Assembly (NCBI GenBank): GCA_003353945.1
Contig: PIVM01000001.1
Span: 31,811 to 95,810 of the forward strand
DNA: 64,000 nt
Reading direction: 5' to 3'
Source: Gammaproteobacteria bacterium
GTDB taxonomy: Bacteria > Pseudomonadota > Gammaproteobacteria > Pseudomonadales > PIVM01
Numbering within the stretch: position 1 is the first letter of the stretch; every line of letters begins with the position of its first letter. The notes below the pieces were generated by a model. The model searched no databases. It worked only from the letters and a program-made list of their open reading frames with translations, and had not been told where the DNA came from. Made by a program: the position numbers and the translations under genes. This document shows, in pieces, positions 2 to 16,607 of this stretch.

Positions 2-1237
2 ACCAATAATAGCGTATTTATTTTCAATACCGCCCAGCTCCTGATAAGAACAGCGGGTTGTGGCGATTCCGTTTTCTGTGGCTTTCGCCAGTATACTTTC
101 ACTGGCAGCACGCTCTTCGGTCCCAAAACCCAAATCAAGCAAAATGGCTGTCGTGGGCTGTTCTTTCGAGGGCTGCTGCAACAGGCTTAATACCAGTTGT
201 TGCTCAAACTCCGGTGATAGTTTTTTTCGCGGGTTGCCACCAACGCCAAGATTAATCGTAATAATGTGCTCATAACCTCGTCGCCGCATGGCAACGATCG
301 CTTCACTCGCATATTCCAACTTGGAGTGTTCAGGCCACACCTGTGGGTAACAGAATTGGCCGGGGCCGAGCACCGTATCCAACCAGAGATTGGCAAGCTC
401 GGCAATTGATATTTTCTTCGGGTAGGAATCTTTACCTCGACTATTAAAGAAAAAATAATAATCACTGTCAATCAACGGCAACACACCCAATTGACTGAGT
501 CGCGAATCAGGATCGAACAACAACACCTCTCCCTCCTGATAACCCGACATTTCCTCTTCCACCAAATTGAGCAAGCTCAGCCAGGCGTTAAAGCGTTCAA
601 TCAAACTGCCACGGCGCACATAACTGAGTGGTTGAATGCGCACATTTTGCTGACCCGCATAGACTTCACGTAATTTCTCCGACCCGATCAAGACAATGTC
701 TGCGTGCACAAAGCGTTGCTTTAAACGTTGGCAAAAGACGCTGGAAATAGCCACATCCGCACCAATGGTCACTCGCGATAGGAGCAGTATTTTTTTCGGT
801 TCAACCGTCAGTTGACGGCGGCGATCACTGTTAGCCCGAATCGATTCAATGCGATCATAGAGCTGCCGTCGACTGTACAAACCTTGTTGCTGCAGACGCT
901 GATCCAGTTCAGCGCACTGGGGTAATTTACGTAAAAAAGCCACCACCTGTGCAATCAGGCGGTTATAGGTTTCCGTTTGCAACTCCTCAAAATCATCACA
1001 CAATTGCTCGATTACCCTGCCAAACAATGCACCGGCACCAATATTGTTAAGTTGATCATCGTCGAAATAGGTGGCCATATCACAGAGCAGATCAATATAG
1101 TCACCATCAAAATGATCACTGTATAGGTAACGGTCCAGAAATGATAAAGCCGTGCGACGCGCCAAATGCACGAGTGGATCTATTTGAGGTGCATCGCGTA
1201 GCTCAAGCCACTGTTTGCGATAGTGAGCCGGTCTCAT
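2..1237 (-). CDS. GT9 (heptosyltransferase-like) glycosyltransferase with ~145-aa N-terminal extension; truncated at left edge
   Basis: Not in the ORF track. Translated by hand from ATG at 1237 (AAGGAA upstream); open to the window edge. MRPAHYRKQW...KKILLLSRVTIGADVAISSVFCQRLKQRF...ITINLGVGGNPRKKLSPEF resemble GT9 N- and C-lobe motifs. Start overlaps the end of the upstream GT9. Confidence 0.7.
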   Translation of the reverse strand, partial: MRPAHYRKQWLELRDAPQIDPLVHLARRTALSFLDRYLYSDHFDGDYIDLLCDMATYFDDDQLNNIGAGALFGRVIEQLCDDFEELQTETYNRLIAQVVAFLRKLPQCAELDQRLQQQGLYSRRQLYDRIESIRANSDRRRQLTVEPKKILLLSRVTIGADVAISSVFCQRLKQRFVHADIVLIGSEKLREVYAGQQNVRIQPLSYVRRGSLIERFNAWLSLLNLVEEEMSGYQEGEVLLFDPDSRLSQLGVLPLIDSDYYFFFNSRGKDSYPKKISIAELANLWLDTVLGPGQFCYPQVWPEHSKLEYASEAIVAMRRRGYEHIITINLGVGGNPRKKLSPEFEQQLVLSLLQQPSKEQPTTAILLDLGFGTEERAASESILAKATENGIATTRCSYQELGGIENKYAIIG

Positions 1238-2358: not shown

Positions 2359-3930
2359 TCAACCTTCATCAAGTGAATACTTGACTTCTTTTTCCATTTC
2401 TCCCAGGGCAATTTTCTCCCGCTCCCATTGGATATAGTCGGATCGTACGCCCATCACATTGGAATAGCGAATTGTATAATGCACACTATTCTTTTCCATC
2501 AATGCTTCTGACAGCTGTCGATCATACGCGACCAGATTCTCTTTTTCCGTCAACCAGGTTTCCCTGTCCATGGCTTCAACCTTGCGCACCAGTTTTTCAT
2601 ATATGGGCTGGCACTCCCAGTCGGTCATTGCGTTCACATACCAGTTACATAGCTTACCGATTTTATCCAGAAACAAATCGTGATCTTCACCAAAGTTCAA
2701 ACAGGAACCATCAAAATAATTACCCATCCCGGCCATCTTGCTTTCATCGATATAGGGCTTGGAAATTTCATATCCGGCAGTACCCGGAAATGGGAAAAAC
2801 AAGGCCCAGCGAAAACGTCCCATTTTGACTTTGGCACAAAGTTCCAGCGTTTCCATTAGTTCCGCTCGGGTTTCACCCGGCAAGCCAATCATAATAAAGG
2901 CAGAGGAATGCAAATTGTGCTGGTGTGCTGCAGTGAAAGAGTTTTCAATTTGCGTATTCGTCATTGTGCGGTGCAAGACCTCGCGACGTACACGGGCGCA
3001 ACCTGACTCCAAGCCAAATTTCACAATAATGCAGCCGGCTTCTGCCAACGCCGCTGCCGATTTTTCATCGAAACAATTGACATGACCGTTTACCACAAAG
3101 GGTAGACCAATACCGTGTTCGATATACGCCTTGCAAAATGCCTGCACATACCGCTTATTCAGCGTAAAAAGATCGTCATCAAATATAAAGGTATTGATTT
3201 CAGGATTTTCTCGCTTGAGTTTTTTCAAGTCATCCATGACTACATCTATAGGAAAATGACGCAGAAAATCTTTGGCACTTTTCGCCGCGCCATCATTGAT
3301 ATATTGATCAACAATTTCGATATTAAAACAATAGGTGCATTTATAGGGGCAACCTCGTGACGTTAAAATCCCCATCCAGCCGCGTGTTTGCGACATAATG
3401 GCTTTCATATCAAACACACTGTAGTCCAGGCGCGCCAAGGTGTTTAGATCAGGAAAAGGCGCCACTTTATTGATAATGGGTTCATCGTCCCGCCACAGTC
3501 GTAAATTGGGTATCTGCTCCGTGGGCTGATTATTTTCGAGTGCATTCATCAACTCCAACAGCGCATATTCGCCTTCACCAATACAAACATAATCAAACAA
3601 TCGGCTCTGATGCACCTCATCAGGCACCATCGTGCAATGAACACCGCCGATGATTTGTGGCAATTCGGGAAAGGCACGACGGACCTCTTTGCTCTGCTCT
3701 TCTATCCAGGGCATTTGCTGGGTCATCGCAGACCACCCCAACAGTCCAGGTTGTTTTTCCTCAATTATGCAATTGATTTCATCGCTGCTGGGAATCTCCT
3801 TATGCTTATCTGAAACGTGCAGCAACTCCAGTTCATGGCCATTGGCATGAAGAACCCCGGCAAGGGAAGCAACCCCGTGATTGGTACCCAATACAGAGTC
3901 AATCTGAGGGTAAATCAATAATATCTTCAT
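2359..3930 (-). CDS. Cobalamin-binding radical SAM enzyme (class B type)
   Basis: N-terminal B12-binding domain (IIGGVH, DYVCIGEGE), SRGCPYKCTYC CxxxCxxC, FDDDLF, FGLESG, IGLPGET, PFPGT. Confidence 0.9.
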   Translation of the reverse strand: MKILLIYPQIDSVLGTNHGVASLAGVLHANGHELELLHVSDKHKEIPSSDEINCIIEEKQPGLLGWSAMTQQMPWIEEQSKEVRRAFPELPQIIGGVHCTMVPDEVHQSRLFDYVCIGEGEYALLELMNALENNQPTEQIPNLRLWRDDEPIINKVAPFPDLNTLARLDYSVFDMKAIMSQTRGWMGILTSRGCPYKCTYCFNIEIVDQYINDGAAKSAKDFLRHFPIDVVMDDLKKLKRENPEINTFIFDDDLFTLNKRYVQAFCKAYIEHGIGLPFVVNGHVNCFDEKSAAALAEAGCIIVKFGLESGCARVRREVLHRTMTNTQIENSFTAAHQHNLHSSAFIMIGLPGETRAELMETLELCAKVKMGRFRWALFFPFPGTAGYEISKPYIDESKMAGMGNYFDGSCLNFGEDHDLFLDKIGKLCNWYVNAMTDWECQPIYEKLVRKVEAMDRETWLTEKENLVAYDRQLSEALMEKNSVHYTIRYSNVMGVRSDYIQWEREKIALGEMEKEVKYSLDEG

Positions 3931-5560: not shown

Positions 5561-6178
5561 ATGTCTCTTGAACTTCCCATCGATATTGATTCCGTTAAAG
5601 GTTTTCTGGCCGAGGATGAAGCCGACGCCTTGTATAAGGCAACAAAACAATCCTCTCTGCTTGGACCCTGCCTGGAAATTGGAAGTTATTGTGGTAAATC
5701 AACTATTTATATGGGTCTGGCCTGCAAGGAAAATAATGGCGTCCTGTTTGCCCTGGATCATCATCGTGGATCAGAGGAACATCAAAAAGGAGAAATGTTC
5801 CATGATCCGGAGCTATTTGACAGCAATGAAGCCTTAATGGACAGTTTTAAGGAATTTCGACGTAATATACGCGCCGTCAATCTGGAGGGCACGGTCGCCC
5901 CCCTGGTATGCAGTTCAGACGTTGCTGCCCGACAGTGGTCTACACCCCTCGGCATGGTCTTTATCGATGGTGGACATAGTCTGGATGCGGCTCTCAATGA
6001 CTACCGCTGCTGGGCCAGCCATATTGTGCCCGGCGGCATTCTGGCCATTCATGATATCTTTCCAAACGCTGAAGACGGCGGACAGGCACCTCACGAAATC
6101 TATAAACTGGCAAAAGCCTCAGGACTCTTTGAGCAGTTGTCGCTCGTTAATACTCTCGGACTGATGCGACGAATCTAG
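5561..6178 (+). CDS. Methyltransf_24-type SAM O-methyltransferase, MeT1-like (MMP 1-O-methyltransferase homologue)
   Basis: LEIGSYCGKST, DHHRGSEEHQ, FIDGGH, AIHDIFP..DGGQAP motifs recalled from mycobacterial MeT1. Confidence 0.8.
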   Translation: MSLELPIDIDSVKGFLAEDEADALYKATKQSSLLGPCLEIGSYCGKSTIYMGLACKENNGVLFALDHHRGSEEHQKGEMFHDPELFDSNEALMDSFKEFRRNIRAVNLEGTVAPLVCSSDVAARQWSTPLGMVFIDGGHSLDAALNDYRCWASHIVPGGILAIHDIFPNAEDGGQAPHEIYKLAKASGLFEQLSLVNTLGLMRRI

Positions 6179-7207
6179 CAAACAAACTTGCGTGAACAAG
6201 CGCGAGGCCGCTGTATATTCTGTCAATGCATCGGCCGCCAATAGAATGGCCCCTGCCGTCCAGGTCGGTTTTTCATCAGGCCACAGCAGGTCTTCCACTA
6301 ATTGATAACCCGTCCAGTAAGCACCGTCTTTGGCGCGCCACTGATGTAACCAACTGTAGACGGTAACAGCACGCGCGTGATCACCTGCCGCCAGTAGCGC
6401 CATGGTCAACTCGCAGGATTCCGCCACTGTCACCCAAGGCTCATCCGAGACACAACGACAACCCATCTCTGCGATAACAAAATCATCCCAACGCTTTTGC
6501 AGATGAGATTTCGCCTGGGCCTTTGGAATCACACCGGTCAACACCGGATAGAACCAGTCCATCGAATAACGTGCCTTGCTCTCCCACGTGCGATCAAACC
6601 GGTCGCGATGATGGCGTAAAGTATTCCCAAGACGTTGCCGGGCATGCAGCCAGTCTCGACGCTCACAGTCGAGCGTCACGGAAATATTGTAGGCGCATTC
6701 AAGACTTTTATAGATAGAGCTGCAACCGGTGATGAGTGCGTCTTCCCTAGCCTTGCCGTCAGCATTAACCGCCCAGTGAATTTCGCCGTGTTGGGTTTGA
6801 AGATTGAGAACAAAGCCGATGGCTTTCTCCACCATCGGATACATGGTTTTTAAAAACTGTCGGTTTTCAGTAATCAGGTAATGATGCCAGATACCCGTCG
6901 CGACATAGGCAACAAAATTCGTTTCCCTGCGTTCGCGATTGTCTATTGCATTGTCACGATAAGCTGCCCACCAACTGCCATCGGTTAGCTGAACATCCAT
7001 CAACCATTGATAGGCTTTTTCAGCAGCATCATATTCACCACCGATACTCAGACCCATCGCTGCTTCCACATGATCCCATGGGTCTGCATAGCCACCTTCA
7101 AACCAGGGAATAGCACCATCTTTCTGCTGTGTGTTAAGCAAATATTGTACGGTAGGTCTTAGAAACTCATGAGGAAACATTCCTCGCGATAAAAACAATC
7201 CACTCAT
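6119..7207 (-). CDS. (alpha/alpha)6-barrel protein often annotated 'prenyltransferase'; MmpH-like MMP hydrolase homologue
   Basis: Repeats QQKDGAIPW, QLTDGSW, RAKDGAYW; DPWDHVEAAMGL, RYSMDWFYPVL, EPWVTVAESCE. Start at 7207 forms an ATGA overlap with the upstream stop. Confidence 0.72.
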   Translation of the reverse strand: MSGLFLSRGMFPHEFLRPTVQYLLNTQQKDGAIPWFEGGYADPWDHVEAAMGLSIGGEYDAAEKAYQWLMDVQLTDGSWWAAYRDNAIDNRERRETNFVAYVATGIWHHYLITENRQFLKTMYPMVEKAIGFVLNLQTQHGEIHWAVNADGKAREDALITGCSSIYKSLECAYNISVTLDCERRDWLHARQRLGNTLRHHRDRFDRTWESKARYSMDWFYPVLTGVIPKAQAKSHLQKRWDDFVIAEMGCRCVSDEPWVTVAESCELTMALLAAGDHARAVTVYSWLHQWRAKDGAYWTGYQLVEDLLWPDEKPTWTAGAILLAADALTEYTAASRLFTQVCLLDSSHQSESINERQLLKES

Positions 7208-7920
7208 GATGCCAGCCCTTTGCGAAAATACATCACAACACTTTTCCCTAATAGCGGATTCAAAAGTGCTTCCATTTTTCGTGTCAACCAGGGACGGTCC
7301 AACAAATCCCAAACCAGCAGGCGATGATATGCCTTGATGAGCAGGGACTGTTCCTGTTTTTCCCACATCAGGCATTTCAACCACCAAAAAGGCGCGTGTA
7401 GAGCATGCGCCCAGTGTCGATGATAGTGATCAAAGCCCTGTGACTCTATTTGTTGACGCAGTTGACGCGCCTTGAAAATCCTTAGATGCCCACCTTCATT
7501 GGCATGATAGTCATCACTAAATAACCAACAGAGTTTCTCAGGCCAAAAGCGTGGTACGCTGGCACAAAATATGCCGCCTGGTTTTAATATTCTTTCAATT
7601 TCTTTTAATGCCCCGAGATAATCTGGAATGTGTTCCAGCACTTCGGAACAAATCACTTTATCAAAACTACTGTCGGCAAACGGTAGTTCCAACGCATTGG
7701 CCACCGATATCACAAAGGTTTTATTGCCATTATTCGGTTCTGCAAACGGCTCAAAACGCTCTCTTGTTGTTTTTAGATCATCAAAACAAAGATCAACACC
7801 TACCGCTTCGACATCTGCTGTCATGTAGGTAGAAATAACATGACGTCCTTCCCCACAACCAAGATCCAACACGCGGTCGCCGGTTTTCAAGCCAAATAAT
7901 TTATAGTCGACTGTCTGCAT
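7204..7920 (-). CDS. Class I SAM methyltransferase; putative 3-O-methyltransferase of the MMP-like cluster
   Basis: VLDLGCGEGRH, SEVLEHIPD, YHANEGGHLRIF, HALHAPFWWLKC, LNPLLGKSVVMYFRK. Confidence 0.8.
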   Translation of the reverse strand: MQTVDYKLFGLKTGDRVLDLGCGEGRHVISTYMTADVEAVGVDLCFDDLKTTRERFEPFAEPNNGNKTFVISVANALELPFADSSFDKVICSEVLEHIPDYLGALKEIERILKPGGIFCASVPRFWPEKLCWLFSDDYHANEGGHLRIFKARQLRQQIESQGFDHYHRHWAHALHAPFWWLKCLMWEKQEQSLLIKAYHRLLVWDLLDRPWLTRKMEALLNPLLGKSVVMYFRKGLAS

Positions 7921-9277
7921 ATTTATCTAACACCGTATGGTAATAGCCAGTCATTTCTTGCGCAGCTACATTCCAGCAAAATTTTTCCAGAATACGCTGC
8001 CGACCAGCTCTGCCCAGAGTTTCTCTTTTAGCAGGGTCTGTCAGTAATACATCAATTGCATTGGCAATCGCATCTGCATCTGCCGGCGGTACAAGAATAC
8101 CGGCGTCACCCACAACTTCACTTAAGGCCCCTCCGGTAGTGGAAATCACCGGCACTTCACAGGCCATCGCCTCCCCTGCAGGCAAACCAAAACCCTCATA
8201 AATGGATGGCACCACTGCAATCGCAGATTCTGCGTAATAACGCACCAATTCTTCTGTCGTAATACCCTTGACGAAACGTACCTTCTTATCAATCGCCAGA
8301 GATCGCAATAATTGTTCCGTTTCACCGCGTTCTTTGGGTTTGCCCACTACCAGTAGTTCCAAGTCTGTATAGCGGCGTAATAATTGTGCATAGGCAAGCA
8401 ACAAATACCGCAAGCCCTTAAGGGGCTCGTCAGCCGAAGCCGTCGCCATAATACGCAACGGATTTCTCTTCACGCCCGGTATTGGCGCAAATTCCTCGGT
8501 ATTAATCCCGTTATACACTAAGTTGATATCGACATTGCCGATACCGAATGATGTGGCAATATCCTGCCGAGAGCGTTCCGAGACCGTCACAATATGATCT
8601 AGTTTTTTGACCACCTGTTTTTGCATGGTAAGAAAGCTATGCCAACGGCGTATCAATAGTTTGTCACGCCATCTATCGGCTGCGTTCAGTGCAATCTTAA
8701 GGTCATTGGTAATCGGATGATGCACCGTTGTCACCAGTGGCCAGCGCTGCTGGATTTTGAGCATACCATAGCTCAAACACTGGTTATCATGGATCAAATC
8801 ATACTTGTGGCCATGCATATTTAAGTACTTGGAAACACGACGGCCAAAACAATAAGGCTCGCTAAAACCACCTGTCAACTTGCTGGTCCACTCAATAATA
8901 TTGGTCAATGATTTCAGGTGATGAGGGCGTATTGATGTCAGGCCGGTTTCAAACAAATTCATACCGGGCATCTTGATCAACTTCACTCGTTCATCAAGAT
9001 GCGGGTAAGGTTGCCCTGATATAACATCCACGCTATGGCCCGCATCAACCAGGGCCTTACTAAGATACTTGATATAAATGCCCTGACCCCCGCCAAAAGG
9101 GTGGCTGCGATAACCCAGCAGGCATATTTTCAAACGATCACGAGTTTGGCTTTGACTGTTTACCGCTCCACTGGATGAAGGCACTGCTGAGGAATGATCC
9201 AACGCTTGGCGCGCCAATGGCGCAATACCGGGTAATTCACTTATTGTTGATTGAGCAATTGATTCTTTTATTTGCAT
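7901..9277 (-). CDS. GT4 glycosyltransferase, ManT-like (alpha-1,4-mannosyltransferase homologue)
   Basis: LLGYRSHPFGGGQGIY, SGQPYP, HDNQCL, TVHHPIT, ASADEPLKG, PSIYEGFGLPAGEAMAC (EX7E); start uncertain (low-complexity N-terminus). Confidence 0.82.
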   Translation of the reverse strand: MQIKESIAQSTISELPGIAPLARQALDHSSAVPSSSGAVNSQSQTRDRLKICLLGYRSHPFGGGQGIYIKYLSKALVDAGHSVDVISGQPYPHLDERVKLIKMPGMNLFETGLTSIRPHHLKSLTNIIEWTSKLTGGFSEPYCFGRRVSKYLNMHGHKYDLIHDNQCLSYGMLKIQQRWPLVTTVHHPITNDLKIALNAADRWRDKLLIRRWHSFLTMQKQVVKKLDHIVTVSERSRQDIATSFGIGNVDINLVYNGINTEEFAPIPGVKRNPLRIMATASADEPLKGLRYLLLAYAQLLRRYTDLELLVVGKPKERGETEQLLRSLAIDKKVRFVKGITTEELVRYYAESAIAVVPSIYEGFGLPAGEAMACEVPVISTTGGALSEVVGDAGILVPPADADAIANAIDVLLTDPAKRETLGRAGRQRILEKFCWNVAAQEMTGYYHTVLDKYADSRL

Positions 9278-9338
9278 ACCTGATCAGCAACTGCTCAATG
9301 GCAGCCCATTTTGTTTTTTTGTTACAATACCCTGATTT

Positions 9339-9352
9339 TTCAATATGTTACA
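9339..9352. promoter_or_regulatory. KstR-like TetR operator candidate upstream of the manT-like operon
   Basis: TTCAATATGTTACA matches TNNAACNNGTTNNA at 7 of 8 fixed positions; second TGTTACA half-site at 9320-9326. Confidence 0.35.
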
Positions 9353-9576
9353 CTTATTCTCGCTTTCTGCAGACCGATGGAAAATGATTCCATTAAATCA
9401 TCAGTAGCAGTTCCCGTTAATGCAGCGGCATATCCACGTAAATCACAGCGCCTGACACCCTTCATTCAGGGTGAAAAATGCGCAGATTCTACTCGGATAT
9501 GCAAAAAAAATCCAGCGCCTATACGAGCGTATCGCCAATGGCCCTAATGACGGTTTCGTCATAATCAGTTTCCCGG

Positions 9577-9677
9577 CCGCCTTTCTCACAAAGTAACGAT
9601 TTGAGAAAGGGCTCCGCCTAAGAGCCTGTGCGAGAATAGAAAACCTACTGCGGAAAACCCATTTCAGCCAGACTCCT
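9577..9677. repeat. Degenerate MITE-like relics
   Basis: CCTTTCTCA...TGAGAAAGG hairpin, then CTAAGAGCCTGTGCGAGAATAG (19/22 to the reverse complement of 56979-57000) and a partner end ATTTCAGCCAGACTCCT. Confidence 0.5.
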
Positions 9678-9782
9678 CAGACAAACAAGAATGGATCTTC
9701 GAAGAGTGATCGTTTTTTATCAAACCTGTAAAAATAAGGGCGCGCAGAAGCCACACCCCATTGTTTTCCCTTCACATCTGCG

Positions 9783-9893
9783 TTACTGCCAATCATCAAA
9801 AAAATGATATCCAGCAAGGATGGATAATGAAGCACATAGCACACTTATAGCCAATCTTGTTTTTGTTAAAAAATAGTTTTTATTTTCCTTCAT
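9783..9893 (-). CDS. Possible 36-aa small membrane peptide or gene remnant
   Basis: AGAGGA RBS, ATG at 9893; MKENKNYFLTKTRLAISVLCASLSILAGYHFFDDWQ has a basic N-terminus and a hydrophobic stretch. Confidence 0.25.
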   Translation of the reverse strand: MKENKNYFLTKTRLAISVLCASLSILAGYHFFDDWQ

Positions 9894-9994
9894 GAATTGC
9901 ATCCTCTGATGATTAAGCAGCTTACAGATGATATGTAATGATCGATGCTTGAAAGATCAAGCCTCTCTGCTTTGCCCACTCATCACACGGAGAA

Positions 9995-10870
9995 TCAACT
10001 ATCGCCTTGTTCCTTATACAGTTTCAACATCTGCCGCAATGCCTCACGCCAGTGCAGAGGCTCCACACTTGTCTGCTGATAACTCTGTGTTTTATCCATC
10101 ACACTGTACGCAGGTCGAGTTGCCGGTGTCGGGTACTCTGCACCTGGAATCGGAAAAATCTTACAGGAAGACGGTATCACGTCTAAGGCAGCAGCCTCCT
10201 CCTGAATGGCAATCGCAAAATCATACCAACTAGCAACACCGGTATCTGACCAGTGATACACGCCTTTTAGATCAGGCTGTTGCGCGCAATCCCAGATAAA
10301 ACGCGCCAAACCGGCTGCCCATGTCGGTGTGCCGATTTGATCATCCACCACGCTAAGTTGCTCACGCTCTGCCATCAGTTTAAGCATGGTTTTGACAAAG
10401 TTCGCACAAAAGTGCGAATACAGCCAGGACGTGCGGATAATCAAGGCATCAGGATGCGCAACCAACGCCTGTTGCTCACCAGCCAACTTACTCGCCCCAT
10501 AAACGCTGACAGGGCTGGGCGTATCAGTCACGGAGTAAGGAGTACTTTTTTTGCCATCAAAAACAAAATCCGTGGAGATTTGAATAAACCTTGCCCCTTG
10601 TTGACTAGCAGCTTGGGCCAAATTCGCCGCGCCTGATGCATTCACTGCATAGGCTAACGCTTCCTCAGTTTCAGCCTGGTCGACTGCGGTGTATGCTGCA
10701 GCATTAATCACTACATCAATTTGCAATCTAGCGAGATATTCACTCACCACTTCTGCTTTGGTAATATCGATATGCCGCTTATCCACCTCGGACAGCGTGA
10801 TATTGCCAGGGCAGCTGCAATGCAACTCCCGGCCCAACTGGCCATCACAACCAACGATCAACACATGCAT
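9995..10870 (-). CDS. rfbD: dTDP-4-dehydrorhamnose reductase
   Basis: GCDGQLG, NAAAYTAVDQAE, ISTDFVFDG, YGASKLAGE, DQIGTPT, YPTPATRPAYS. Confidence 0.95.
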   Translation of the reverse strand: MHVLIVGCDGQLGRELHCSCPGNITLSEVDKRHIDITKAEVVSEYLARLQIDVVINAAAYTAVDQAETEEALAYAVNASGAANLAQAASQQGARFIQISTDFVFDGKKSTPYSVTDTPSPVSVYGASKLAGEQQALVAHPDALIIRTSWLYSHFCANFVKTMLKLMAEREQLSVVDDQIGTPTWAAGLARFIWDCAQQPDLKGVYHWSDTGVASWYDFAIAIQEEAAALDVIPSSCKIFPIPGAEYPTPATRPAYSVMDKTQSYQQTSVEPLHWREALRQMLKLYKEQGDS

Positions 10871-11040
10871 GTTATTCCTCCTTCAACGGTCAACGCGGGC
10901 AAATGATAGGCACTGTTCTATTCGAATACAAGAAACAACTGCCATCGCCTCAATTCGATCATTAACATACAGTTCTTTGTATCTCAGGGCCTATCCTCGT
11001 TATAATCGTCCATTCACACCATACTAATGAACCACATTCT

Positions 11041-11952
11041 ATGACAATAGAGCATCTATCGCCAAAGTACTGGCTCACTTGGATAGGTCTGGGCCTGCTG
11101 TGGCTTACTGCCCAGCTACCACTTGCCGTGCAATTCCAATTCGGCAAGGCATTGGGTCTATTACTCTATTATCTAGCTCGAGAACGTCGCCACATAACGG
11201 ACGTCAATCTCAGGTTGTGCTTTCCTCAATTGAATGAGGATCAACACAAAGAACTTTGTAAAAAAACCTTTATCGAAAATGGCACTGGCATTTTTGAAAC
11301 GGCCTTTAGCTGGTGGGCCAGTGACCAAAGGGTAAAACCTCTGGTTGAAATGCGGGGACTGGAATTAGTCGAACAGGCACAGCAGCAAGGAAAAGGCGTG
11401 TTACTGCTGGGGGCACACTTTACTACTCTCGATCTGGCCGGTCGTCTGCTAAGTTACTTTCTTGACTTTGATGTCACGTATCGGAAACATAACAACCCGG
11501 TCATGAATCATTTTATTCTTAGCTCTCGCAAAAAACGTTTTAAAAATGTTATCGAACGTAAAGAGATGCGCCGCGCCTTCAGGAGCCTAAAGCAAAACCA
11601 TGTTGTCTGGTATGCCGGTGATCAGGATTACGGCCGCAAGCACGCTGTGTTTGTACCGTTCTTTGGTACGCCTGCCGCCACCATTACTGCTACTAGCCGC
11701 CTTTCCTCTTTTAACCATTCGCCGGTATTGCTAAGCCGTTACTATCGCAAAGCTGACAATAGCGGCTATGTTTTTGAGATCACGGCTCCCTTTGATTCCA
11801 TTCCCAGCGGAGATGATATTGTTGATGCGCGCATTATCAATCAAGCATTAGAAACGGCTATCAGTAAACACCCCGCACAATACATGTGGGTACACCGGCG
11901 TTTTAAAACACGCCCGGATGGCGATAAACACTTTTACAGCAAACACCGCTAA
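11041..11952 (+). CDS. lpxL: Kdo2-lipid IVA lauroyl/late acyltransferase
   Basis: PKYWLTWIG, HFTTLD (HxxxxD), YAGDQD, QYMWVHRRFKTRP. Confidence 0.9.
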   Translation: MTIEHLSPKYWLTWIGLGLLWLTAQLPLAVQFQFGKALGLLLYYLARERRHITDVNLRLCFPQLNEDQHKELCKKTFIENGTGIFETAFSWWASDQRVKPLVEMRGLELVEQAQQQGKGVLLLGAHFTTLDLAGRLLSYFLDFDVTYRKHNNPVMNHFILSSRKKRFKNVIERKEMRRAFRSLKQNHVVWYAGDQDYGRKHAVFVPFFGTPAATITATSRLSSFNHSPVLLSRYYRKADNSGYVFEITAPFDSIPSGDDIVDARIINQALETAISKHPAQYMWVHRRFKTRPDGDKHFYSKHR

Positions 11953-11958
11953 CGATCC

Positions 11959-14058
11959 TTAGTTTACTGATTTATTATTGTTGTACATCATATAGGTCGC
12001 CGTATGATAGAGGCCTAGCAGCAACTCTTTCATTGCCGCCGCTTTTTCAGGATATTGCTTCTGAACATCCTCTTTCACATTATCACTGCCCAGCTTATGC
12101 AAACTTGAACGCTCGCCATCGTACAACATCTGAAGATAAAACTGCTTGCCCCTCAGACCTATGGTCGGCCGATTACGTCGATCACCGCCATGCACGATCA
12201 CATAGGATTCAGCTTCATCGACAGCGTAGATATTTCGACCCAAGGTCGTGTTTTGATAAGGTAATCCCGCTAAAAAAGCAGTACTCGGCAGCATATCCAC
12301 CAAACTCATTGGCGTTTCAATAACACGATTTTCTCGCAATATTGTCGGCGCATAAATTATAAAAGGCACGTGATGTTTAAACAGATTCAGTTGATCGTCT
12401 TCTTTCAGATGGGGTGATGGTTTGCTTTTATCATTGTGATCTCCGTAGAGAAGAAACAAGGTATTATCAGCATAGTCAGACTGTTTCACCAACTCCTGAA
12501 AATAAAAATTTACATTAAAATCCAGCAGTCGAATCGCATTAAACTGGTCTGCACTTAGAAAACCGTTACGCTCCGCTTCTTCTGATGATACATCTACTTT
12601 TTCAAAACCACTATCATCATCTGGAATGGTAAACGGCCTGTGGTTGGCGGCAGTTTGAATCACAGCAAAAAAAGGTTTGCTGCGATCGCGCTGCATTAAC
12701 AGTTCGTGTGATTCGATAAACAGATTACGATCCGATATGCCCCATACATCCACATTTTCGCTCTTCCAGTTACCTTCCTCAAAAAGATGCAGGCCCTCAA
12801 TATTGTTTACTAATACCGCTCTAATATTGGCCCAATTTGCACTGCCGCCCAGAAAATAAAACTTTTCATAATTATCTAGCGAGCCGACTACCGTTTGTTG
12901 ATCAACAAAGCGTGGATTTCTCGATGCAGTCGTCTGACCAAATGACACATCAGGTATTCCTGTCATCTTGCCAAATACAGTTCTTGCAGTACCACTGGAC
13001 GGCACAAAAAAATGGGGGAAAAAATGGGATTTTCTTGCTAAAGCGTCCAGATTCGGTGTTGGATTGAGTGAATTGCCAAACACACCTAAACGGTTAGCAC
13101 CCAGTGACTCCAACATGATCAGCACAATATTAGGCGGCTTGTCCATTGGATGAACAAGATCCGCTGGCGCTGGCTCATTTAGTTCACGCAAATAATCCGG
13201 TTCAGTACGACTCGCTGAGTCAACAGATTCCAATCCCAAATACTTTCTAATCATCGGATAAGTGCTTTTTACAATTTCCTCATCATAGGCATGACCGCGA
13301 TTATCATAAGTATCAACAAAAAAAAGCACTGGATTAAGTGCTACGGCAGCAACAGCGATATCATTGGCAAAATAGGCTTCACTCCAGCGCAAAACGGTGA
13401 CCGACTCAAGACGAATACCATCTATCTTACCAATCAAACCGTACAAAACAGCAATTGAAGCCAACACGATGCCAACAGCTTTTTGTGCCTTTAAAACAAC
13501 CACTGCAGGCTTTTCAATAAGTCGAAATATGCGAGCAAAGAGCCTCCCACACAGAATAAATAACGCGGCTACAAACAAAGCCTGCCAGATAACGGGATAG
13601 CTTTCCCAGACCATCTGTAATGAAATTAATGGTGTTTCAGCAAAACGCAAAATAGAGGCATCAACTCTCTCCCCAAGATAGGCGTAATAGCCAAAATCAA
13701 TCATATAGAAGATTGTCACCAGCACAGTCACAAGACTAAGATACAACTGCACGACAGACGCGGTTACTTTCGATCTAACAAAACTAAACTTGGGCAATGC
13801 CGCACAGAAAAAGGCGGGGAACAGAACAATAAGTGCTAGCCTGAGATCAAACTTTACTCCCAAATAAAAGGCGTGCACCAACTCATCAACTTTATAATCA
13901 CTGTCAAAGCCGTAAAAATGGATAAAAAATAAGGAACGCCACAGGACAAAATACACAAAAAAGATGGCCACCAGCATGGCAAACAACTGGATACGGCGTG
14001 ACTTCAGATAAAGCATATTGATTCTCACAAAATAGCCAACAGAGTTACCATTCCCCAT
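11959..14058 (-). CDS. LTA synthase family / membrane-anchored sulfatase-fold phosphotransferase
   Basis: N-terminal TM helices; PPNIVLIMLESLG, TPNLD, GTART, ANHRPF, YGDH. Confidence 0.85.
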   Translation of the reverse strand: MGNGNSVGYFVRINMLYLKSRRIQLFAMLVAIFFVYFVLWRSLFFIHFYGFDSDYKVDELVHAFYLGVKFDLRLALIVLFPAFFCAALPKFSFVRSKVTASVVQLYLSLVTVLVTIFYMIDFGYYAYLGERVDASILRFAETPLISLQMVWESYPVIWQALFVAALFILCGRLFARIFRLIEKPAVVVLKAQKAVGIVLASIAVLYGLIGKIDGIRLESVTVLRWSEAYFANDIAVAAVALNPVLFFVDTYDNRGHAYDEEIVKSTYPMIRKYLGLESVDSASRTEPDYLRELNEPAPADLVHPMDKPPNIVLIMLESLGANRLGVFGNSLNPTPNLDALARKSHFFPHFFVPSSGTARTVFGKMTGIPDVSFGQTTASRNPRFVDQQTVVGSLDNYEKFYFLGGSANWANIRAVLVNNIEGLHLFEEGNWKSENVDVWGISDRNLFIESHELLMQRDRSKPFFAVIQTAANHRPFTIPDDDSGFEKVDVSSEEAERNGFLSADQFNAIRLLDFNVNFYFQELVKQSDYADNTLFLLYGDHNDKSKPSPHLKEDDQLNLFKHHVPFIIYAPTILRENRVIETPMSLVDMLPSTAFLAGLPYQNTTLGRNIYAVDEAESYVIVHGGDRRNRPTIGLRGKQFYLQMLYDGERSSLHKLGSDNVKEDVQKQYPEKAAAMKELLLGLYHTATYMMYNNNKSVN

Positions 14059-15077: not shown

Positions 15078-16607
15078 TTAGTAAACTTGGAATATAATCA
15101 CTTTGTCGTTTTTACTATTGCTTATTTCCTTCAGTATGTCCGCATTTTTTAACAAAATTGTTTTTCTTGCTGAATCAATATCGTCGGCTTTGAAATGCAA
15201 AGCGTAGATATGTCCCGGCAACCATTTAGAAGCCAGAATCTCTTTATTTGACTTGGCAACTCCTCTGCTTCGCAAAGCATAAGCTTGACTAAAATAAGCA
15301 ATATTGGGCCTATTGGTTATCAGTGGCGTATTCGCCATCTCACCGTTTTTAATCCACTGAGCCGCCTCAATAATATGATTTTTTTTATAACTTGAACTAA
15401 CAACTGTGTCGAGCACATAACCGGCGCTAATCAGGTAAAACAACAACCAAACCACAGCGCTTTGCCTGAAACAGGTCAGTATTTTGTCAACACAAAAAGG
15501 TAGAAAAAGCAAACCCAGCACTACCAACGGAAAGCAATATCTTTCCAGCATAAATCCCCAGGAAAGCACAAACACAATCAAATAGGAAAAAACCGTTGCC
15601 AGACACAATAGAATCAATCTGCCGCTAAAGGTATCTATTGGCAACGTCACTCTCTTAACAAAAGTAAACAGCAATAGTAAAAAATAGATTGGGGTAAACG
15701 CCCTGATACAATTAACGAGCAGCAGCGTAAATAGCGCTGCATAAACCGCATATGGCGCATCCTCTACAGCGGTGTGCTTGATCAGTTCCCCCGACAACAC
15801 CTCAGCCGCCTTGCGCATCTGCTGCTGTAAATTGCTGAAAGCTTGAAAATAATTTGCTGTGTCAATAACCGGTTTAGCCTTTTCCACCAATACCGGATCA
15901 AACAGGCGCATAATAAACGCCACCACCACTGCCACCAGTACAAGCAGACTAAGAAATTTCGCTGCAACCTTTATTCGTTCCTTGACTACGCCCCTGCCAA
16001 AGAGCAATAAGCCCATGGGTGTGACAAGTGCGACAATCACCATCTCTGGTCGTGATAAAAACGCTAAGGTCACATAAGCTAACCATCTTAACTGAGATGT
16101 GAATGTCGGGATTTTATTGTAACGAATCAACTCCAACACACTTAGCAGCATAAACCCCAGAAAACCGGGATCTCTGACAATACTGGCTCGATAATCAGCA
16201 ATCAAAGGATGAAAAAGAATGATCAACAGGGCAATCAATTGTGCGCGTCTGCTACCGCCCATCTCCTCTACAATTTTAACAAATGCATAACTGACCAACA
16301 AAAAACACAGTGAGGTGATGATAGAACCCGCATAGTGTAGCGGGATTGCCGTAAGCTGGTGTAATAAAGCAATAACTATTGAATAAAACGGCCAAAAATA
16401 GCTGGCCATGACCTGAGAAAAATCCTGTTCAAGAAAACTTCTGGCGGTTAAAAGATAGAGAATACCATCCTTGTTAATCGTCGGATGTGAAGCAATAATC
16501 CACCCGGATAATAGCAAACTTGCCAACGCAATCACTTCGACGCGAAGAGCATCTCGCCGGTATAATATTGCACTGCTTGTGAGACGATCAAACAGATTGT
16601 TTTCCAC
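15078..16607 (-). CDS. GT-C-fold (GT39/ArnT/PMT-like) polytopic membrane glycosyltransferase
   Basis: Many TM segments; first loop INKDGILYLLTA...FWPFYS; IVRDPGF, LSRPE, ERY motifs. Confidence 0.7.
   Translation of the reverse strand: MENNLFDRLTSSAILYRRDALRVEVIALASLLLSGWIIASHPTINKDGILYLLTARSFLEQDFSQVMASYFWPFYSIVIALLHQLTAIPLHYAGSIITSLCFLLVSYAFVKIVEEMGGSRRAQLIALLIILFHPLIADYRASIVRDPGFLGFMLLSVLELIRYNKIPTFTSQLRWLAYVTLAFLSRPEMVIVALVTPMGLLLFGRGVVKERIKVAAKFLSLLVLVAVVVAFIMRLFDPVLVEKAKPVIDTANYFQAFSNLQQQMRKAAEVLSGELIKHTAVEDAPYAVYAALFTLLLVNCIRAFTPIYFLLLLFTFVKRVTLPIDTFSGRLILLCLATVFSYLIVFVLSWGFMLERYCFPLVVLGLLFLPFCVDKILTCFRQSAVVWLLFYLISAGYVLDTVVSSSYKKNHIIEAAQWIKNGEMANTPLITNRPNIAYFSQAYALRSRGVAKSNKEILASKWLPGHIYALHFKADDIDSARKTILLKNADILKEISNSKNDKVIIFQVY

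Follow-up and report, generated by a model that had tools for sequence, protein, structure and literature searches.

Orthologues of the mycobacterial methylmannose polysaccharide genes in a marine-type gammaproteobacterium and related clusters in other Gram-negative lineages

Background

Polymethylated polysaccharides are described, in two papers (PMC9883506, PMC2674218), as peculiar to mycobacteria and a few actinomycetes, and their function has been framed by mycobacterial lipid metabolism. One of them, the methylmannose polysaccharide (MMP) of mycobacteria, is a chain of 11-14 alpha-(1->4)-linked 3-O-methylmannose units whose reducing end carries a 1-O-methyl group. The MMP cluster of Mycolicibacterium hassiacum comprises the genes MHAS_04402-04405 for ManT, pMeT3, MmpH and MeT1 (Maranha et al. 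2023, PMC9883506), and the same four protein families are encoded at positions 5561-9277 of a 64,000-nt stretch of contig PIVM01000001.1 from a gammaproteobacterium, here called the window. We conclude that the four window genes are orthologues of the mycobacterial manT-pmeT3-mmpH genes with their convergent meT1, and that their most likely function is the synthesis and recycling of a soluble polymer in the cytoplasm, built of alpha-(1->4)-linked 3-O-methylmannose. The sugar, the linkage, the chain length, the donor nucleotide and the physiological role (long acyl-chain binding, cold adaptation) are what we infer by analogy with the mycobacterial system.

There are two other described systems of immediate relevance. 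Streptomyces griseus makes an acetylated MMP, and mycobacteria also contain the 6-O-methylglucose lipopolysaccharide (MGLP), which is likewise cytoplasmic, is a methylated alpha-(1->4)-glycan and has been proposed as a binder of acyl chains (both in PMC9883506). MGLP differs in its sugar and in its genes, and none of the four window proteins matched MGLP enzymes in the searches run. A full-text search, with most subscription journals and supplements outside its reach, found no literature linking MMP genes or the polymer to Proteobacteria. The word "proteobacteria" is absent from the text of PMC9883506, whose survey was restricted to actinobacterial genomes.

Layout of the cluster

The ORF (open reading frame) list of the window contains four intact ORFs at 5561-9277, given here with product lengths in amino acids (aa):

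5561..6178, plus strand: meT1-like gene, 205 aa, Methyltransf_24 family
6119..7207, minus strand: mmpH-like gene, 362 aa, (alpha/alpha)6-barrel protein; ORF open back to a TTG at 7387
7204..7920, minus strand: pmeT3-like gene, 238 aa, class I S-adenosylmethionine (SAM) methyltransferase
7901..9277, minus strand: manT-like gene, 458 aa, GT4 retaining glycosyltransferase

The end of the manT-like gene and the start of the pmeT3-like gene overlap by 20 nt, the pmeT3-like stop codon and the mmpH-like ATG (7207) share the letters ATGA, and the 3' end of the convergent meT1-like gene overlaps the mmpH-like gene by 60 nt. The ATG at 7207 is most likely the real mmpH-like start, judging by database sequences, since a length of 362 aa, at 100% coverage, is shared by the database copy of this protein and its nearest homologues. 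By a simple measure used in place of a dedicated predictor, the Kyte-Doolittle hydropathy averaged over 19 residues, the maximum across all four proteins is 1.32; as no window of 19 residues exceeds this value, all four appear to be without signal peptide or membrane segment. The initial annotation, made from the sequence alone, had described GT4, class I methyltransferase and barrel genes with overlapping stops and starts, a convergent Methyltransf_24 gene, and no obvious signal peptide in any product. The gene content and layout are borne out by the ORF coordinates, by Pfam for the GT4 and methyltransferase families and by the match of the barrel protein to the structure 7qsj, and the absence of hydrophobic segments agrees with the last point. 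No NCBIfam model scored above its cut-off for any of the four proteins.

Comparison of the four proteins with the M. hassiacum enzymes

The initial annotation would have been refuted had the best matches been other than the MMP proteins. Instead, the M. hassiacum MMP enzymes turned out to be the top and nearly the sole solved relatives of three of the four proteins, and the fourth is the reciprocal best match of pMeT3. The meT1-like protein, which belongs to PF13578 (Methyltransf_24, E 5.9e-23) and is thus of the Mg-dependent type of SAM methyltransferase, matches 6g7d/6g80/6h40 alone in the PDB at E<=0.01 (E 3.4e-49, residues 10-202). We take 6g7d to be MeT1, an assumption that is backed by the convergent gene product of the mycobacterial-type cluster L094, which matches 6g7d at E 2e-113. 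The ligand contacts of MeT1 are reportedly described in a 2019 PNAS paper (Ripoll-Rozada et al.). The MeT1 motifs DHHxGSEEHQ, FIDGxH and HD are at least 97% conserved among 66 aligned rows from four phylum-level groups.

The mmpH-like protein matches 7qsj at E 7e-93, its sole other PDB match being at E 1.7e-05, and in Pfam it has only a sub-threshold match to GH95. The manT-like protein matches 7qsg at E 3.3e-93, with the next match at 3.9e-30, and contains the Pfam domains Glycos_transf_1 (E 1.1e-33) and Glyco_transf_4 (E 1.8e-22). The entries 7QSJ and 7QSG are MmpH and ManT of M. hassiacum (PMC9883506), and the MmpH proteins of the mycobacterial-type loci L093 and L094 match 7qsj at E 3e-189 and 2e-187.

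The comparison extends to individual residues, for which the numbering was taken from mycobacterial-type sequences verified to carry the residues that PMC9883506 names. All 11 named MmpH residues are identical in the window protein: Asp47, Trp49, Asp50, Asn101, Phe102 and Thr163 correspond to D42, W44, D45, N97, F98 and T160, and Met215, Tyr219, Glu262, Glu265 and Trp315 to M216, Y220, E263, E266 and W316. These include the catalytic base Glu262 and the candidate acid pair Asp47/Asp50, kept in the window as E263, D42 and D45. For ManT, 8 of the 10 named residues are identical, namely Gly15, His142, Lys240 and Glu313 (window G63, H186, K287 and E361) and Gly314, Phe315, Leu317 and Glu321 (G362, F363, L365 and E369), and the residues touching the mannosyl moiety are among those conserved. 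The window ManT differs from the mycobacterial protein in having Ile339 for Leu291 and Thr341 for Asp293, and in about 46 extra N-terminal residues (1-46) without counterpart in 7qsg, the alignment beginning at residue 47. Part of this extension may be conserved, since some ManT relatives align over 439-441 residues.

The MmpH acid pair varies elsewhere in the family. The position of Asp50 is Asn in 7 of 7 alphaproteobacterial rows (L053, L056, L058, L061, L062, L063 and L066), and the consensus over 24 diverse MmpH representatives reads DPWNH. Given the Asn in the alphaproteobacterial rows, Asp47 may be the essential acid, or the alphaproteobacterial enzymes may differ.

The pmeT3-like protein falls into the broad Pfam families Methyltransf_23/11/31 and has 36 generic matches in the PDB, where no MMP structure exists for pMeT3. 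Its assignment comes from genome comparisons. In 3 of 3 mycobacterial-type genomes its best match is the gene between manT and mmpH (240-256 bits, the next paralogue reaching at most 40), with 46-47% identity to the mycobacterial-type proteins over 233-237 residues, and a reverse search with the pMeT3 of L094 found the cluster gene in 3 of 3 Cellvibrionales-type genomes (226-240 bits). ManT proteins of the window and of mycobacterial-type genomes are likewise reciprocal best matches in both directions with large gaps to paralogues, and the meT1-like protein has a single match, at the cluster, in each of the three mycobacterial-type genomes. Reciprocal searching, which had been proposed as a check on the initial annotation, places pMeT3, ManT and MeT1 all on cluster genes. 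The motifs that the annotation had cited are all present in the translations of the four window ORFs. Of these, DHHxGSEEHQ and FIDGGH recur in 6g7d, DPWDHVE in 7qsj, and HDNQCL and TVHHPIT in 7qsg; YHANEGGH is identical in the mycobacterial-type pMeT3 of L093-L095, where HAPFWWLKC reads HSPYWWLKC.

Gene order and phylogeny

The synteny set consists of 86 loci and the window (87 regions). Twelve short loci (L081-L092) were left out, and six of their genomes were fetched again with wider flanks as L093-L098; L081 is in the same genome as L069, and L086-L090 lie outside the analysis. High-scoring segment pairs were aligned only if they covered at least 80% of the query and contained no stop, which gave, besides the window, 82 rows for MmpH, 78 for ManT, 79 for MeT3 and 65 for MeT1, and 74 rows for the tree. 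The group labels gamma, alpha, delta and actino were assigned from the organism names of the records.

Colinear manT, pmeT3 and mmpH genes were found in 77 of the 87 regions. In every one of the 60 regions with meT1 in the flank this gene is on the opposite strand, in 48 of them it lies within 400 nt, and in 24 of these 48 the 3' ends overlap; where the flank lacks meT1, the gene was found elsewhere in the genome in all five genomes checked. Six actinomycete loci have the layout of the window, manT followed by pmeT3 and mmpH with a convergent meT1. The window and the M. hassiacum/mycobacterial cluster agree in gene order, in the convergent meT1 with overlapping gene ends and in the MmpH residues. 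Clustering of the ORFs of the 86 loci and the window yielded only these four families as common across phyla, none of them a transporter. A fifth conserved cluster gene was considered and rejected, the next "families" being antisense shadow ORFs inside the cluster genes.

The tree was inferred from three concatenated proteins by maximum likelihood (quick search, LG+G4, SH-aLRT support) and is unrooted. The gammaproteobacterial, alphaproteobacterial, Thermodesulfobacteriota and actinomycete rows each lie on one side of a branch, and within the gammaproteobacteria the Microbulbiferaceae, Cellvibrionaceae, Spongiibacteraceae and Halieaceae groupings are recovered. The window groups with Spongiibacteraceae and an uncultured Cellvibrionales row, the last node being weak (80). 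The GlmS protein of the window is 71% identical to that of a Zhongshania (Spongiibacteraceae) genome and 60-64% identical to those of four others, and this, together with the place of the cluster among Cellvibrionales-type gammaproteobacteria, agrees with the gammaproteobacterial host that had been named. The pattern fits a long vertical inheritance of an MMP-type cluster within these lineages. A recent transfer from Actinobacteria was considered and found unsupported, each major group being one side of a tree branch; the origin and the direction of any transfer cannot be named because the tree is unrooted.

Distribution among genomes

A search of 5.8 billion proteins, with 8000 candidates scored, gave at least 4778 MmpH relatives at E<=1e-10 among those candidates. 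The best 120 are 70-79% identical to the window protein, except that the top row, at 100%, is the protein of the window itself, and their named sources are the BD1-7 clade, Seongchinamella, Oceanicoccus, Litorivivens, Halieaceae and Spongiibacteraceae. Among representatives at 50% identity there are 260 MmpH homologues at E<=1e-30, and 983 at E<=1e-10 when more distant MmpH-like families are counted. Culturable bacteria with the cluster include Seongchinamella sediminis, Zhongshania aliphaticivorans, Spongiibacter marinus DSM 17750 and Microbulbifer agarilyticus (loci L002, L007, L027 and L030). Taking one genome per species, the best 80 of at least 600 loci include Cellvibrionales-type and SAR86-type gammaproteobacteria, alphaproteobacteria (Parvibaculum, Rhodobiaceae), Thermodesulfobacteriota (Syntrophaceae, Smithella) and Streptomyces/Embleya. 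The analysis thus confirmed that the finding is real and that its scope is wider than first thought. The initial annotation had reported the gene set in a gammaproteobacterium, where it is indeed present; it is not peculiar to one organism, the module being widespread and apparently vertically inherited. The annotation also held that the genes were hidden by generic names, and homologues are in fact labelled prenyltransferase, GH15 glucosidase or hypothetical protein, with one JGI record among them already named "MMP endo-(1,4)-3-O-methyl-alpha-D-mannosidase".

For prevalence, samples of genomes were drawn evenly and an MmpH homologue was counted at E<=1e-30:

Family of Seongchinamella (Halieaceae-type): 146 of 151 genomes
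Order of that family: 90 of 250 genomes
Class of that family: 9 of 301 genomes
Alphaproteobacterial class (that of the Parvibaculum genome): 19 of 301 genomes
Actinomycete class (that of Streptomyces): 87 of 301 genomes, including one unpublished genome, G484

These counts bear on the possibility that the cluster is a decaying remnant, or that it is used to break down imported methylated mannans, as might be supposed from MmpH being a hydrolase. That 146 of the 151 genomes sampled from a single family retain it points to a selected function, and the cluster tracks taxonomy. The four reading frames are intact with their catalytic residues kept, a catabolic pathway would have no use for a glycosyltransferase and two methyltransferases, and no uptake genes are conserved with the cluster. 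We therefore consider decay or catabolism very improbable, and an intact cluster for synthesis and recycling of the polymer the better account.

The cluster is also found in small genomes. Three SAR86-type loci (L050, L052 and L057) carry it in genomes of 0.9-1.9 Mb by assembly size, again with hldE adjoining, and at least MmpH is present in the gammaproteobacterial genomes G195, G277, G360, G373 and G405 (0.9-1.9 Mb, also assembly sizes). If these genomes are streamlined rather than incomplete assemblies, retention in them would hint at an important function.

Nature of the product

Several observations weigh against a product identical to mycobacterial MMP. The proteins of the window are only 40-47% identical to the mycobacterial-type proteins, lower than the 51-63% between Streptomyces and mycobacterial-type proteins. 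The role proposed in mycobacteria involves fatty acid synthase I (FAS-I), which these bacteria are not known to have, and for this reason the physiological role may not transfer. The donor nucleotide of the manT-like enzyme may differ as well, to judge from the residue substitutions: Asp293 is kept in 9 of 10 actinomycete rows versus 2 of 49 gammaproteobacterial rows. In ManT the proposed guanine contacts are the Leu291 carbonyl and the Asp293 side chain, the latter to guanine N2 of GDP-mannose (PMC9883506), and the second of these contacts is systematically replaced in the gammaproteobacterial enzymes. Lastly, the activity of pMeT3 is putative even in mycobacteria (same source).

On the question of supply, the GDP-mannose pyrophosphorylase family TIGR01479 scores above its cut-off in each of four related proteobacterial genomes that carry the cluster, and no GDP-mannose supply genes were found in the scanned part of the window. 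The systematic loss of the guanine-contacting Asp from ManT in proteobacteria poses a concrete biochemical question about donor specificity.

The low identity and the replacement of Asp293 in 47 of the 49 gammaproteobacterial rows are also what one would expect if the enzymes were true orthologues with a materially different product, that is, one with another donor or sugar, another chain length, decorations, or short methylated oligosaccharides with another role. There are precedents for decoration: the S. griseus polymer is acetylated (PMC9883506), and in Syntrophaceae-type loci mmpH and meT1 are separated by genes for a hexapeptide acyltransferase and a B12-radical SAM protein. Set against this, the identical pocket of MmpH (11 of 11 residues) includes the hydrophobic residues thought to fit a further mannose beside the active centre, the mannosyl-contacting residues of ManT are conserved, and in gammaproteobacterial loci the cluster has no additional conserved companion gene. 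We regard such a different product as unlikely, and yet, given the Asp293 replacement and the inserted tailoring genes, as a more serious rival than the envelope product discussed below.

The Streptomyces-type clusters (L069, L078 and L080) offer a useful comparison for a polymer of the MMP type. Their three genes are colinear as in the window, with meT1 more distant but present, and their proteins are closer to the mycobacterial ones than those of the window and form one tree group with the mycobacterial-type proteins. Streptomyces shows that proteins about 51-63% identical to those of the mycobacterial type can make up a working MMP cluster.

The insertions just mentioned are of two kinds. 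Locus L068 has a hexapeptide-repeat acyltransferase gene and a B12-binding radical SAM gene (9066-9788 and 9793-11373) between mmpH and meT1, and the Syntrophaceae/Smithella-type loci L065, L067, L070, L071 and L074 have a B12-binding radical SAM gene in the same place. By analogy, such insertions suggest an acylated or otherwise decorated polymer in these bacteria, reminiscent of the acetylated MMP of S. griseus.

Proposed mechanism and physiological role

According to the Discussion of PMC9883506, the steps of the mycobacterial MMP mechanism have been shown for the M. hassiacum and M. smegmatis enzymes, pMeT3 excepted. From orthology and conserved residues we infer that the same steps would operate in the window organism. 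The (alpha/alpha)6-barrel endo-alpha-(1->4)-mannosidase would cleave mature chains to oligomers of defined size, from which daughter chains are primed, and the GT4 enzyme would extend such oligomannoside primers (of more than three units) with alpha-(1->4)-linked mannose from a nucleotide-mannose donor. The class I methyltransferase would methylate O-3 of the added units, and the Methyltransf_24 (MeT1-like) enzyme would cap free reducing ends by methylating the anomeric O-1. With the mannosidase oligomers serving as primers, existing polymer would thus prime its daughters. The enzymes and the polymer would be cytoplasmic, in view of the lack of hydrophobic segments and of any export gene conserved with the cluster.

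As for the role of the polymer, we tentatively advance a broad proposal that we think is somewhat less probable than its alternatives taken together: several Gram-negative lineages may possess an MMP-type polymethylated mannan in the cytoplasm as an old trait passed on by vertical descent. Nearly all of the abundant coastal Halieaceae would have it, it would be common in Cellvibrionales-type bacteria and present in SAR86-type, Parvibaculales/Rhodobiaceae-type and Syntrophaceae/Smithella-type bacteria, and the polymer may act as a chaperone of long acyl or alkyl chains in general. The general form of this role is proposed because the Gram-negative hosts are not known to have FAS-I or mycolic acids. 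Among the named hosts, Zhongshania aliphaticivorans, Pseudomaricurvus hydrocarbonicus, Smithella and Parvibaculum are known to degrade alkanes or long-chain fatty acids. Growth of mycobacteria at 15 degrees C was slowed when MmpH was lost (PMC9883506); a role in cold adaptation or acyl-chain buffering in marine bacteria is speculation on our part. Some of the methylated sugars in the organic matter of seawater could also stem from this polymer, as a bacterial source that has gone unrecognised. If the proteobacterial clusters make the same polymer as mycobacteria, the function of MMP would become open to study in fast-growing, non-pathogenic marine bacteria without a mycobacterial envelope, the FAS-I-centred role of MMP would need rethinking, and a conserved trait of an abundant marine family would gain a name in place of "prenyltransferase" or "hypothetical protein".

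Genomic neighbourhood

The window cluster, unlike the mycobacterial cluster, is found in a Gram-negative host among lipopolysaccharide (LPS) genes, which Pfam and NCBIfam identify as heptosyltransferase II, hldE, rmlD, lpxL and a gene for a sulfatase-family protein. This setting raises the possibility that the product is not a cytoplasmic polymer, and that the four genes instead assemble or trim a methylated mannan belonging to the envelope (LPS core, O-antigen or capsule). An envelope product is favoured chiefly by the recurrence of hldE beside meT1 in 9 of 80 loci, six of them Halieaceae-type and three SAR86-type; 3-O-methylmannose caps are present on some O-antigens (PMC9445017).

The flanks change from lineage to lineage: Microbulbifer, Cellvibrionaceae, alphaproteobacterial, Syntrophaceae and actinomycete loci have other neighbouring genes, yet the set of four remains intact. 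Gene families shared among the flanks of the 86 loci and the window include no flippase, ABC transporter, polymerase or lipid-carrier transferase, and the nearest window ORFs carry no such export family or chain terminator. All four proteins are without hydrophobic segments and look soluble, and a cytoplasmic endo-hydrolase fits recycling, not export.

The comparison with polymannose O-antigens (Escherichia coli O8 type, exported by Wzm-Wzt) points in the same direction. That system resembles what is expected here in its cytosolic GT4-type mannosyltransferases and its SAM-dependent O-3 methylation of mannose. It differs in needing an undecaprenyl-linked primer, a WbdD-type terminator and an ABC transporter, none of which is conserved in the flanks of window-type clusters, and it has no counterpart of MmpH or MeT1. 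We judge an envelope mannan to be quite improbable and retain the cytoplasmic polymer as the preferred reading.

The remaining features of the window that bear on the neighbourhood are the following:

2-1237, minus strand: ORF of 412 aa, open-ended
2359-3930, minus strand: B12-binding radical SAM protein, 523 aa, between heptosyltransferase II and hldE
9278..9994, no strand: intergenic stretch, 717 nt, non-coding, upstream of manT, between the operon and rmlD
11959-14058, minus strand: sulfatase-family protein, 699 aa, adjoining lpxL, with weak LtaS and arylsulfatase matches
15078-16607, minus strand: ORF of 509 aa
18178-29962: glmS, glmU, atpD, atpG, atpA, atpB and a parB-family gene, about 9 kb from the cluster

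The ORFs at 2-1237 and 15078-16607 have no Pfam or NCBIfam family match, an Rfam scan of the window gave zero matches, and no ORF bearing a family match was found at 9278..9994. This intergenic stretch is presumed to hold the operon promoter; a promoter scan gave 8 promoter-like matches against 7.6 expected in shuffles, no excess, and a terminator-like hairpin lies within it at 9759-9737 on the minus strand.

The radical SAM gene at 2359-3930, for which no NCBIfam model scored above cut-off (best ApyD and BchE), was considered as a cluster member and rejected, having no counterpart in the 8-kb flanks of related gammaproteobacterial loci. Its product and that of the Syntrophaceae-type cluster gene share their domain architecture but are only 25% identical (E 3e-27). 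The sulfatase-family protein may be a transferase of phospho-groups to lipid A or the core. The glmS-glmU-atp-parB arrangement is typical of the origin-proximal region of gammaproteobacterial chromosomes.

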